Source of the DNA: Escherichia coli
Lineage (GTDB): Bacteria > Pseudomonadota > Gammaproteobacteria > Enterobacterales > Enterobacteriaceae
Length of the DNA stretch: 64,000 nucleotides
Assembly: GCF_009931435.1 (NCBI RefSeq)
Contig: NZ_CP043414.1
Strand: one strand, 5' to 3'
Position 1 is the first letter of the stretch; every line of letters starts with the position of its first letter. Position numbers and translations under genes: made by a program. The notes below the pieces were generated by a model. That model was not told where the DNA came from. It did no database searches and saw only the letters and a list, made by a program, of their open reading frames with translations. Shown here piece after piece: positions 10,387 to 13,583 of the stretch.

Positions 10387-10842
10387 ATGGCTAAATCCCG
10401 TTTCACAGATAAGCAAATTGCTGAAATTTTACAGCGGTCAAAAGAGGGGGCATCTAATAAGGAGCTTTGTGAACACTATCAATTTAGCGTTAACACGCTG
10501 CGGCGCTGGCAAGAACAGCACGCTGACGGCATCAGAAGCGAATTAAAAAAAATAGAATCTAAAGCACAGATCGTCTTTCTGCTTTTCATTGCTATCGTCA
10601 TTATACTCACGCTTATATTTGGTAAACCTACAGGTGGATGGGCAATACCGCCTTTATTACTCTATTGTGTTTATTATATCCGCCTGTATCGCAACATCTC
10701 CGCCAGACATATAAAAAAAGAAGACATTTTTCTCTCTCGTTCTGTTAATAACAGCTATAGCGCCCTTTATAATTTGAGCTGGACGTTTATTTGTTTTTTT
10801 ATTTTTGCAGTAATCTATTTTTTTATTCAGGTGTTTTCGTAA
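10387..10842 (+). CDS. Hypothetical protein: N-terminal transposase-like HTH fused to predicted transmembrane segments
   Basis: 151 aa from ATG 10387 with strong SD (ggaggg, 9-nt spacing); residues 1-50 resemble IS3-family OrfA HTH; C-terminal two thirds are AT-rich and hydrophobic. Confidence 0.45.
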   Translation: MAKSRFTDKQIAEILQRSKEGASNKELCEHYQFSVNTLRRWQEQHADGIRSELKKIESKAQIVFLLFIAIVIILTLIFGKPTGGWAIPPLLLYCVYYIRLYRNISARHIKKEDIFLSRSVNNSYSALYNLSWTFICFFIFAVIYFFIQVFS

Positions 10843-10848
10843 CAGACT

Positions 10849-10871
10849 GACCTGAAAGAGTATTTCAGGCC
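10849..10871. terminator. Hairpin between the convergent hypothetical ORF and mgtA
   Basis: Inverted repeat gacctgaaa...tttcaggcc. Confidence 0.4.
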
Positions 10872-10886
10872 AGCTTCATCACTTGC

Positions 10887-13583
10887 TTACTGCCAGCCGT
10901 AACGACGGCTATAGAACCCTTTCACCAACTGGGTTAACGTCATATACCCTGCCAGAATCGCAACCAGCCACGGGAAATAGCTTAACGGCAGCGCCTGCAG
11001 TTGCAGATAACTGGCCAACGGCGAAAACGGCAATGCGATCCCGACTATCATCACAATCACGGTCATGATCATTAACGGCCACGATGCACAGCTCTGAATA
11101 AACGGTACACGACGGGTACGGATCATATGCACAATCAGCGTTTGCGACAGTAATCCCACCACAAACCAGCCCGACTGGAACAGCGTTTGCGTTTCCGGCG
11201 TGTTGGCATGGAATACCCACCACATCAGGCAAAACGTCAGAATATCGAAGATCGAACTGATCGGTCCGAAGAAGATCATAAAGCGCCCCAAATCCGCCGG
11301 ATTCCAACGCTGAGGCTTTTGAATTTGCTCGTCGTCGACGTTATCAAACGGGATCGCCACCTGTGACACATCGTACAGCAGGTTCTGGATCAGTAAGTGT
11401 AAAGGCAGCATCGGCAGGAAGGGCAAGAAAGCACTCGCCACCAGCACGCTGAACACATTACCGAAGTTAGAACTCGCCGTCATTTTTATGTATTTCAGCA
11501 TGTTGGCGAAAGTCCGGCGTCCTTCAATAACCCCCTCCTCCAGCACCATCAGGCTTTTTTCCAGCAGGATGATATCAGCCGCTTCACGGGCAATATCTAC
11601 CGCACCGTCCACAGAAATGCCGATATCCGCAGCGCGTAAGGCGGGCGCATCATTAATACCATCGCCCATAAAGCCAACCACATGCCCTTCGCGCTTTAGC
11701 AAGGTCACGATGCGTTCTTTATGCATCGGCGTCAGGCGAGCAAACAGCGTGGTGCGCTGTGCAAGATTTGCCAGTTCGTCGTCAGATAGCGTTTCAATAT
11801 CACTACCAATGACCACCTCTCCCGCGTCCAGTCCCACTTCATGGCACACTTTCGCCGCCACTAACTCGCTGTCGCCAGTAAGGATTTTCACGGTAATGCC
11901 ACTCGCTTTTAATGCCTTCAGTGCCGGAGCTGTTGTCTCTTTCGGCGGATCAAGGAAAGCAATATATCCTTCGAGGATCAGGTCGGATTCATCCGCCCGC
12001 TGGTAATCCCCTTCACGTGCTGGCAGGTATTTCGTCGCCACCGCAACCACGCGCAGCCCCTGACGATTCAGCGTATCAGTAACGCGCTTAATCTTACGCA
12101 GTATGATGTCATCAAGCGGCACAATCTCACCATTGTGACGCACCTGCGAACACACATTGAGGATTTCCTGCAATGCGCCTTTGCAAACCAGTTGATGATG
12201 TTCGGTATTCTCTGCCACTACCACCGACATCCGGCGACGCTCGAAATCAAACGGAATCTCATCAATTTTTTGCCAACGACTGGCCAGCGAGCGCGCTGAC
12301 TCTTCATCCGTACCTTCGAGCACCGCTGTATCAAGCAGGTTTTTAAGTCCGGTCTGATAATGACTGTTCAACCACGCGCTATGCAGCACGCGTTCGCTGG
12401 TTTTACCGGAGATATCGGTATGATTCTCCAGCACAATTTTATCCTGCGTCAGGGTGCCGGTTTTATCAGTGCACAGAATATCCATAGCGCCAAAGTTCTG
12501 AATGGCATCCAGATGTTTGACGATCACTTTCTGTTTCGACAGCTTTACGGCACCACGCGCCAGCGTCGAAGTGACAATCATCGGCAACATTTCTGGCGTT
12601 AAGCCTACCGCGACCGAAAGTGCGAACAGTGCCGCTTCCCACCAGTCACCTTTGGTGTAACCGTTGATCAGCAACACCACCGGAGCCATCACCAGCATAA
12701 AGCGAATCAGCAGCATACTGACGCGGCTAATCCCTTGCTGAAAGGCATTCGGCTCGCTTTCCTGCTCACTAACACGCCCCGCCAGTTGACCAAACCAGGT
12801 GTTGGCTCCTGTAGCAATCACCATTGCTTGTGCCGTGCCGCTCACCACGGTGGTGCCCATAAAACACAGGGTGTCGCACTCCAGCGGATTGCTGTGCTCC
12901 GGCTGGCGAGTGGTAGCAGCTTTTTCCACGGGCAGAGACTCACCGGTTAACGACGCCTGAGCGACAAACAGATCCCGCGCCTGCAAGATACGTAAATCTG
13001 CCGGGATCATATCCCCCGCCGCCAGTTTTATAATATCGCCGGGCACTAGTTGGTCTATCGGAATTTCCAGCCAGCCATTTTCACCTTTATCGTTAATTAC
13101 GCGCAGTACCGTCGCGGTATTACTGACCATCGCTTTCAGGGCATCTGCCGCTTTGGTGGAACGAGCTTCCTGAATAAAGTTCAGCAACGTAGAAATAGCG
13201 ACCATTAGCGCGATAACACCTGCGGCAAATAAATCTTCCGTGGCGTAAGAAATAGCACCGAGAATGGTGAGCAAAATATTAAAGGGGTTGCGATAGCAGA
13301 CCCATAAATGTACCCACCACGGCGACGGTTGTTGCGCGGGTAATTTATTTTCACCATGTTGTTCGCGGGCAGATTCCACTTCCGCCTGATTTAACCCTTC
13401 CGGATGGGTATTGAACGTTTTCCATAATTCCTGTTCTGGCATCACCGCCATTTTCAGGCAATGCGCACTTAAGGACGGCGGGACCGCCGTATTCACTGTC
13501 TGCTGCGCGCCAGGCAATGGATCGCGATGAACCAGACGGGAAGGTAAATGGCGAATGAGCCGGGTAAAAATTTCTTTAAACAT
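10887..13583 (-). CDS. mgtA: Mg2+-importing P-type ATPase
   Basis: 898 aa, MFKEIFTRLIRHLPSRL..., with DKTGTLT phosphorylation and GDGINDAPAL motifs. Confidence 0.97.
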   Translation of the reverse strand: MFKEIFTRLIRHLPSRLVHRDPLPGAQQTVNTAVPPSLSAHCLKMAVMPEQELWKTFNTHPEGLNQAEVESAREQHGENKLPAQQPSPWWVHLWVCYRNPFNILLTILGAISYATEDLFAAGVIALMVAISTLLNFIQEARSTKAADALKAMVSNTATVLRVINDKGENGWLEIPIDQLVPGDIIKLAAGDMIPADLRILQARDLFVAQASLTGESLPVEKAATTRQPEHSNPLECDTLCFMGTTVVSGTAQAMVIATGANTWFGQLAGRVSEQESEPNAFQQGISRVSMLLIRFMLVMAPVVLLINGYTKGDWWEAALFALSVAVGLTPEMLPMIVTSTLARGAVKLSKQKVIVKHLDAIQNFGAMDILCTDKTGTLTQDKIVLENHTDISGKTSERVLHSAWLNSHYQTGLKNLLDTAVLEGTDEESARSLASRWQKIDEIPFDFERRRMSVVVAENTEHHQLVCKGALQEILNVCSQVRHNGEIVPLDDIILRKIKRVTDTLNRQGLRVVAVATKYLPAREGDYQRADESDLILEGYIAFLDPPKETTAPALKALKASGITVKILTGDSELVAAKVCHEVGLDAGEVVIGSDIETLSDDELANLAQRTTLFARLTPMHKERIVTLLKREGHVVGFMGDGINDAPALRAADIGISVDGAVDIAREAADIILLEKSLMVLEEGVIEGRRTFANMLKYIKMTASSNFGNVFSVLVASAFLPFLPMLPLHLLIQNLLYDVSQVAIPFDNVDDEQIQKPQRWNPADLGRFMIFFGPISSIFDILTFCLMWWVFHANTPETQTLFQSGWFVVGLLSQTLIVHMIRTRRVPFIQSCASWPLMIMTVIVMIVGIALPFSPLASYLQLQALPLSYFPWLVAILAGYMTLTQLVKGFYSRRYGWQ

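Follow-up and report, generated by a model that had tools for sequence, protein, structure and literature searches.

A gene labelled transposase between ridA and mgtA of Escherichia coli: a conserved, non-mobile gene for a putative membrane-tethered helix-turn-helix protein

IS3-family OrfA proteins, such as those of IS911 and IS3, bind the ends of their insertion sequences (IS) through a helix-turn-helix (HTH) and modulate transposition. Recruitment of IS and transposase domains into host proteins is well known in eukaryotes, and no described bacterial counterpart of such recruitment was found in the literature searched. ToxR, TcpP and CadC join an N-terminal cytoplasmic DNA-binding domain to a membrane anchor, an arrangement that we read, from sequence alone, in a protein encoded between ridA and mgtA of Escherichia coli. 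Its open reading frame (ORF) lies at 10387..10842 on the + strand of a 64,000-nt stretch of contig NZ_CP043414.1 (assembly GCF_009931435.1); this whole stretch is called the window below. The ORF starts with ATG, encodes 151 aa and is uninterrupted up to its stop codon, which is included in the coordinates, as a first-pass annotation of the window had claimed. The corresponding RefSeq entry, WP_001130089.1, has the product name 'transposase', and the label in UniProt is likewise 'transposase'. We conclude that the ORF encodes no transposase and does not belong to a mobile element. The explanation that we put first, with about even confidence, is that it encodes an HTH of the IS3-OrfA type that was domesticated and is anchored in the inner membrane, that is, a membrane-tethered DNA-binding protein.

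An IS3-OrfA-type HTH joined to predicted transmembrane helices

The N-terminal part of the protein was assigned to the HTH_Tnp_1 family (PF01527) by Pfam, at residues 2-51 (10390..10539, + strand; E=1.4e-8), with weaker matches to HTH_23 (1.7e-5) and HTH_28 over the HTH stretch. PF01527 was matched by all of the 17 aligned intact family members. The assignment was also supported by the structural model, in which the helices of the HTH occupy residues 8-19, 24-31 and 35 onward, and by cross-genus identity, with an invariant motif S-x-L-R-R-W in the third helix. When the N-terminal 57-71 residues were compared with the N-termini of IS3-family transposases by tblastn and BLASTP, 32-40% identity was observed (tblastn E from 2e-5 to 5e-4; pairwise E=4e-10). 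The OrfA-like HTH proposed by the first-pass annotation was thus confirmed. The alignment to an IS3-family protein extends into the first turns or heptads of its coiled coil, and the first transmembrane (TM) helix of the window protein begins there. The closest IS3 N-termini come from beta- and alpha-proteobacterial elements, not from enteric IS.

A profile search with the HTH alone retrieved no transposase at E<=0.01 and no donor IS; it returned just truncated copies of this gene's own family, including the Salmonella remnant described below. In the six-frame ORF list, no DDE ORF was present near the gene, the only ORF downstream being mgtA, 44 nt away on the other strand. The search for flanking terminal inverted repeats of the IS type found none, only two local hairpins. 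These results bore out the earlier statement that no intact IS is present.

Some database matches were considered and rejected. The NCBIfam models for IS3, IS481 and IS630 scored far under their cut-offs (transpos_IS3, 16 bits versus a cut-off of 160). A match to the PADLOC 'DrmC' model (E=6e-4, residues 1-57) involved a generic HTH only and was not accepted as evidence of a defence function. Matches to PHROG transposase and phage small-terminase families (E from 8e-4 upward) were weak and confined to the HTH region.

The remainder of the protein is hydrophobic and predicted to be membrane-embedded, as had been proposed, but with three helices instead of the two counted before. TM1 (residues 62-78, IVFLLFIAIVIILTLIF; 10570..10620) was assigned from hydropathy, and is continuous with the third HTH helix in the model (helix 35-78). 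TM2 (residues 86-98, AIPPLLLYCVYYI; 10642..10680) is a weaker hydrophobic helix, modelled as 82-106, that ends in a conserved YC-x-YI. TM3 (residues 133-150, TFICFFIFAVIYFFIQVF; 10783..10836) was assigned from hydropathy and the model. Between TM2 and TM3 lies a basic loop (residues 99-132; 10681..10782) with the motif F/Y-R-x-I-S..I..E.IFLSR...Y..SW, predicted to be cytoplasmic; all four features are on the + strand. Kyte-Doolittle peaks over 19 residues reached 3.07 at residues 60-78 and 2.32 at 133-151, with residues 86-98 as a weaker third segment. Among ten diverse family members, mean pairwise identity was 72% in the HTH, 58% in the TM2-TM3 loop, the second-best conserved segment, 52% in TM2, 37% in TM1 and 29% in TM3.

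In the same ten members, the TM2-TM3 loop contained on average 6.7 lysine and arginine residues versus 0.9 in the TM1-TM2 loop. By the positive-inside rule, this distribution places the HTH and the conserved TM2-TM3 loop on the cytoplasmic side, and a topology with the N-terminus inside is consistent with the predicted charge distribution. Periplasmic exposure would be limited to about 7 residues and the C-terminal residue.

An AlphaFold2 (AF2) model built on a 17-sequence alignment was all-helical (pLDDT 76, pTM 0.63), an improvement over an earlier, poor run on 8 near-identical sequences (pLDDT 61). It has helices at 8-19, 24-31, 35-78 (a single helix made up of the third HTH helix, the linker and TM1), 82-106, 111-116 and 126-150, and residues 112-123 were ill-defined, with pLDDT below 50. 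A sequence search of the PDB returned nothing at E<1. Foldseek returned only weak overlaps with LuxR/NarL-type HTH domains from the PDB (E>0.4), and from AFDB50 only family members, all of them named 'Transposase'. The membrane part had no match in Pfam, NCBIfam, PDB or AFDB beyond the family itself.

Selection, distribution and loss of the gene

Selection within Escherichia was analysed with six alleles by pairwise Nei-Gojobori estimates of nonsynonymous and synonymous divergence (dN and dS), the window's ridA being left out of the ridA comparisons. The dN/dS ratio was 0.17-0.26 over the entire ORF; codons 1-60 gave 0.11-0.24 and codons 61-151 gave 0.19-0.35. The dS of the ORF (0.2-0.37) was like that of the flanking ridA and pyrI, for which dN/dS was 0.00-0.04. 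Binomial p values for the synonymous excess ranged from 1e-5 to 1e-7 when the whole ORF was taken and from 3e-4 to 7e-3 when the TM half was taken by itself; they are indicative rather than exact since allele pairs share history. Between genera, synonymous sites were saturated in most pairs (proportion of differences, pS, 0.65-0.87), and for the nonsynonymous proportion pN the HTH gave 0.07-0.23 and the membrane half 0.14-0.34. The HTH was the most constrained part, with an omega of 0.04-0.13 between genera. Judged by these substitution patterns, both halves are under protein-level constraint, looser than in housekeeping genes, and a fortuitous read-through ORF was therefore ruled out.

The same combination of domains was found throughout the family. 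A word-indexed protein search found only relatives in Escherichia (E. coli, E. albertii and E. marmotae), with full-length members 84-99% identical to the window protein, and truncated and frameshifted forms as well. When a profile of the TM half alone (residues 50-151) was searched against 1.84 billion representative proteins, seven proteins were retrieved; the intact ones were about 150 aa, matched from near residue 50 and carried the same HTH in front, while the shorter ones were truncated or frameshifted. With a genome scan that covered one genome per species, intact ORFs of 146-161 aa with a conserved Shine-Dalgarno (SD) sequence were found in Escherichia, Klebsiella, Superficieibacter, Citrobacter, Leclercia and Enterobacter, and AFDB50 extended the family to Pseudescherichia vulneris and Klebsiella aerogenes. 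The ORF was intact in the 6 Escherichia alleles and in at least 10 homologues of other genera.

Both the HTH and the TM parts were present in all 17 intact homologues, from at least eight genera, so the fusion of the two is ancient. The first-pass annotation had offered, as one option, a decayed IS fragment fused to foreign DNA; with a family-wide fusion and constraint on both halves, this proposal did not hold. Members share the N-terminal motif RFTxEQIAxFLxQxKxG..NK.LCE.Y.FS.S.LRRW.E.H, a length of about 150 aa, three hydrophobic helices, a YC.xYI that ends TM2 and a loop with (F/Y)R.(I/V)S...I....(I/V)FL(S/A)R, and the window protein has all of these.

The position of the gene was also conserved. 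In the window, ridA (9934-10320, + strand) lies upstream, and mgtA (10887-13583, minus strand) lies downstream and is convergent with the ORF. The ORF was found directly after ridA in E. albertii, E. whittamii, another Escherichia, Klebsiella spallanzanii, two Superficieibacter species and Citrobacter sp. NCU1. The order ridA-ORF-mgtA was kept on the contigs of the Escherichia relatives, except for two Escherichia-like contigs without mgtA, where the ORF still follows ridA. Salmonella has a decayed copy at the same ridA-mgtA site (L032 3001-3165; L017 5001-5441). This remnant, a 54-aa HTH-only ORF named from serovar Napoli, was present on more than 300 contigs, and frameshifted longer forms also occurred. 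The gene directly follows ridA in at least five genera.

Within E. coli, 5426 complete genomes were surveyed. A 701-bp query of the locus was matched in 5424 of them, with full coverage in only 440, and the ORF alone was found in 442 genomes at 443 places. Among the alleles of these carriers, 42 were at least 99% identical to that of the window; 397, which are of the SE11 type (WP_001118337.1), had an identity of about 92%, and a few diverged more. Every E. coli copy for which flanks were examined had the order pyrB-pyrI-ridA-ORF-mgtA. The idea of a strain-specific chimera was thus not upheld, given the number of carriers and the common architecture of an HTH and three TM helices in a small family of Enterobacteriaceae.

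Genomes of the K-12 type have a gene-free ridA-mgtA spacer of 205 bp (L003 1572-1776). In the alignment, homology runs from ridA through the hairpin after ridA to about position 10367 and resumes at the mgtA stop codon, so the boundaries coincide with the ridA hairpin and that codon. The segment missing from K-12-type E. coli is 10368..10886, and about 150 bp with two REP-like palindromes, GCCTGATGCG...CAGGCCTAC and GCCGGATAAGGC...GCATCCGGC, are present instead. We take these two palindromes to be REP elements. The ridA-mgtA locus therefore alternates between the gene and a REP array.

Whether the reference genome carries the ORF had been left open by the first-pass annotation, which also raised the possibility of an insertion into the intergenic space. 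The refuting condition set in that annotation had a mixed outcome: K-12-type references lack the gene, the only name it has in RefSeq is 'transposase', and disabling mutations were seen in a minority of strains. The insertion, however, was contradicted by the position of the gene in Escherichia species, K. spallanzanii, Superficieibacter, Citrobacter sp. and the Salmonella remnant. This position across genera, together with the Salmonella remnant, indicates that presence is ancestral and the K-12-type REP spacer derived. The simplest reading is that an old gene at the ridA site was lost many times, and that it is not a strain-specific insertion.

The gene was broken in several ways in natural variants. 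An A8 homopolymer at 10545..10552 (+ strand), in codons L53-K54-K55 of the juxtamembrane linker, was a recurrent site of frameshifts. Strain 90-9280 has A9 at the tract and its gene is marked 'frameshifted' by RefSeq, and locus L009 has an additional T there. The protein P0092 (73 aa, 96 contigs) is consistent with an A7 allele and P0013 is of the A9 type, with the frame lost right after LKK in both. Such variants leave HTH-only ORFs of 53-109 aa, and in the window allele a -1 slip at the tract would terminate after ...LKKNRI. Some single tract variants may be homopolymer sequencing errors, but most are probably genuine, since they recur on many contigs. Outside Escherichia the tract is not conserved and reads ELKQ. 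In Escherichia sp. MOD1-EC7003 (L026 4228-4352), the ORF is split at a TATA by a 125-bp insertion containing GTGAATCCCCAGGAGCTTACAT, which we take to be the ERIC/IRU core. E. coli WB61 (L031 1129-1338) has an internal deletion; of the ORF, the last 94 bp remain, the SD and the hairpin after ridA are also retained, and the assembly has N characters at the deletion junction.

A tblastn search of plasmids found two E. coli records with a full-length match, one of which was examined. NZ_AP023207.1 (pMTY18781-2, L010), which is circular, 94 kb long and labelled a non-mobilizable plasmid, carries the chromosomal block tabA-bdcRA-yjgH-pyrLBI-ridA-ORF-mgtA-treRBC. Excision of a chromosomal segment or an artefact of assembly could account for this record. 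Since it holds the entire chromosomal pyrBI-treC block, it was not counted as evidence of mobility.

The ridA-ORF gap was analysed for signals. The SD of the window ORF is GGAGGG at 10375..10380 (+ strand), as previously described, but 6 nt 5' of the ATG; the 9 nt given before approximates the distance from the centre of the SD. All ridA-linked orthologues have GGAGGG, GGAGAG or GGAGCC at a constant distance. Their gap from ridA is 59-74 nt, or 122 nt in one, and in every gap the conserved GGAGGG-like SD comes after a hairpin whose sequence varies. In the window, a long hairpin at 10326..10370 (core stem 10333-10363) directly follows the ridA stop codon, and the folded stretch 10318-10392, which includes a small hairpin at the SD, has a predicted minimum free energy of -27.7 kcal/mol. 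A T-run accompanies this post-ridA hairpin on the minus strand but not on the + strand. Its structure was kept through compensatory changes (ccagg/cctgg, ccaga/tctgg, ccgggc/gcccgg), and it is present in ORF-bearing and ORF-less (K-12) genomes and in other genera (L002-L025). At the 3' side, where the ORF and mgtA converge, the space between their stop codons is taken up by a second hairpin, at 10847..10873, with -12.7 kcal/mol for the + strand and -17.2 for the - strand. A promoter predicted inside the ORF (10745-10773) was discarded as being at chance level for AT-rich DNA, with 2 found versus 2.0 expected. The Rfam scan of 9800-11200 found no RNA family, only matches at the chance level of miRNA and snoRNA.

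The DNA of the gene is AT-rich, with a GC content in 100-nt windows of 31-38% across 10550-10850 versus about 50% in the flanks, in agreement with the first-pass annotation. That the bias is confined to the membrane half was not supported: the HTH half had a GC at third codon positions (GC3) of 0.40 and the TM half one of 0.37, a weak contrast, with 0.57-0.63 in pyrB, pyrI, ridA and mgtA. Since GC3 is low in both halves, the entire gene is compositionally atypical, not the membrane part alone.

Two side observations concern the history of the region. The window's pyrI (9400-9861) compared with that of another ORF-bearing E. coli allele, EC20-4B-2, gave a dS of 0.19, which we judged high for two E. 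coli. The 66-nt spacer between ridA and the ORF (10321-10386) is identical in the window and E. albertii, and the ORF itself is only 89.5% identical. Together these values suggest a recombination mosaic.

Candidate explanations for the gene

In the explanation that we put first, a functional, single-copy chromosomal gene would encode a small, bitopic-to-polytopic inner-membrane protein with an N-terminal cytoplasmic HTH descended from IS3-family OrfA. A short amphipathic linker may be the vestige of the OrfA leucine zipper, followed by the three predicted TM helices, with the conserved basic loop between TM2 and TM3 in the cytoplasm. At the membrane's inner face the HTH would recognise a specific site on DNA, the basic loop on the same face may cooperate with it, and the membrane and juxtamembrane helices would replace the lost zipper in oligomerisation. 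The outcome would be regulation of transcription of a target, or a DNA site held at the membrane. Expression would probably occur via read-through from ridA, that is, by co-transcription. The gene would have been long resident after ridA in Enterobacteriaceae, with repeated loss or pseudogenisation that affected about 92% of E. coli, Salmonella and other lineages. That the HTH, with its S-x-L-R-R-W, is so strongly constrained argues for a specific conserved ligand, most simply DNA. Of the alternatives raised by the first-pass annotation, a domesticated or membrane-anchored HTH protein is the one favoured by the evidence.

Several observations weigh against this explanation. The ORF is absent from 92% of the complete E. 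coli genomes and hence dispensable, and in several lineages it is frameshifted, truncated, disrupted by ERIC or internally deleted. In Citrobacter youngae, Leclercia sp. and Enterobacter sp. kpr-6 the gene is at other loci, and across the examined loci no conserved neighbour or partner gene and no candidate operator was identified. The GC3 of 0.37-0.40 suggests weak expression or xenogeneic silencing. The promoter scan predicted no sigma-70-like promoter in the 66-nt ridA-ORF gap. A 7-bp mini-hairpin (UUCAACC/GGUUGAA, 10366-10385) partly overlaps the SD and could limit translation initiation; its conservation in other genera was not obvious. In the medium-confidence model, the recognition helix continues rigidly into a TM helix, which could hinder access to DNA. 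Literature searches turned up nothing on expression, DNA binding or phenotype of the protein.

Among the alternatives, the one that survives best, and that we still regard as unlikely, is an accessory membrane protein of an exclusion, defence or stress type, of island origin, in which the membrane part is the effector and the HTH serves protein contact or autoregulation. A patchy distribution with recurrent loss and an AT-rich gene would fit such a protein, and so would the copies away from ridA. In Leclercia and Enterobacter sp., the gene adjoins tRNA-Ser genes (L027 3778-3865; L028 2913-3000), and the C. youngae copy is near an ORF that resembles an integrase fragment by eye only. The weak DrmC, small-terminase and transposase matches listed above could be added to these, but as they all concern a generic HTH, they say little about defence or phage origin. 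Moreover, the family has no conserved partner gene, its ridA-linked position is stable across genera, unlike that of island cargo, and the strongest constraint is on the HTH, as fits a specific nucleic-acid or partner interface. Beside the copies at other loci we observed that, in C. youngae and Enterobacter sp. kpr-6, the gene lies about 270-370 bp downstream of an SMR (EmrE-like) gene of 110-117 aa (L023 3393-3725, L028 3281-3634).

A host-kept mimic of OrfA, which would sit on the terminal repeats of IS3-family elements, keep them at the membrane and so damp transposition, appeared quite improbable. The role of the OrfA HTH in binding IS ends and the homology of the window HTH to it speak for this idea; against it, identity to the nearest IS3 N-termini, which are not from enteric IS, is only 32-40%, the HTH profile search found no transposase within its threshold, and a protein with no zipper would form no heterodimer with OrfA or OrfAB.

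The A8 tract raised a further idea, to which we give only a slight chance. Slippage could act as a contingency-type switch that toggles between the membrane-tethered full-length protein and a free HTH-only peptide of 55-73 aa. With an equally slight chance, such a switch would change where, or whether, the IS-derived DNA-binding domain acts on the chromosome. Phase variation was treated as a low-probability idea because the tract is not conserved outside Escherichia. If true, it would represent an undescribed class, a transposase-derived, membrane-anchored bacterial regulator with ON/OFF or localisation control.

Least probable of all is a decaying IS3-family remnant, a functionless orfA stub that reads into AT-rich DNA with its frame open by chance: the 'transposase' names, the OrfA-like HTH, the low GC3, the absence from most E. 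coli and the broken variants would all agree with it, but it is largely excluded by the selection analysis (dN/dS of about 0.2 in both halves, and a protein conserved between genera despite synonymous saturation), by the retention of the 150-aa architecture and SD in at least eight genera, by the lack of inverted repeats, an orfB remnant or a second copy, and by the conserved motifs that the TM half has of its own.

Our results correct a systematic mis-annotation, since the 'transposase' entries on well over a thousand contigs represent a non-mobile, selected membrane protein. The family appears to be uncharacterised and present in databases only under this automatic label. A domesticated, membrane-tethered HTH would be a clean bacterial case in which a host protein of new membrane architecture has recruited a regulatory domain from an IS, and, if it binds DNA at the membrane, a minimal membrane-bound regulator with almost no periplasmic exposure. 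The polymorphism of the ridA-mgtA junction (gene, REP array, ERIC insertion, frameshifts and internal deletion) might be used as a lineage marker and as a case study of gene loss. Practical importance is probably moderate, as the function is deduced from sequence.

Comparison with known systems

The closest described proteins are the OrfA products, the first frame of IS3-family elements (IS3/IS911/IS407-type). They have the same domain in their N-terminal 60 residues or so, with the motif M-x-K-x-R-F-T-x-E-Q-I ... S-x-x-T-L/F-x-R/K-W common to OrfA and the window protein. After this domain the two diverge: OrfA has a leucine zipper, whereas the window protein goes over into a TM helix (from residue 62) at the point of the zipper's expected continuation, and has gained a membrane domain of three helices. 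IS3 elements have a downstream DDE (rve) frame and terminal inverted repeats, neither of which is present at the window ORF. Their orfB is reached by a -1 frameshift, whereas the A8 run of the window ORF has no orfB to shift into. IS elements occupy multiple and variable locations; the window gene is single-copy at a fixed site, as shown by 443 places in 442 E. coli genomes.

RodZ is likewise small, with a cytoplasmic HTH followed by a membrane anchor. Unlike the window protein, it has an Xre-type HTH, one TM helix with a periplasmic domain, universal conservation and a role at MreB, and no sequence or fold match between the two was found in Pfam, PDB and Foldseek searches.

ToxR, TcpP and CadC, which share the overall arrangement, have a winged HTH of the OmpR type, whereas the HTH of the window protein is of the HTH_Tnp_1/HTH_23 type with no match to Trans_reg_C. 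Those proteins have one TM helix and a sizeable periplasmic sensor; the window protein has three predicted TM helices, with periplasmic segments of 7 and 1 residues. With so little periplasmic exposure, any signal would be sensed within the membrane or in the cytoplasm.

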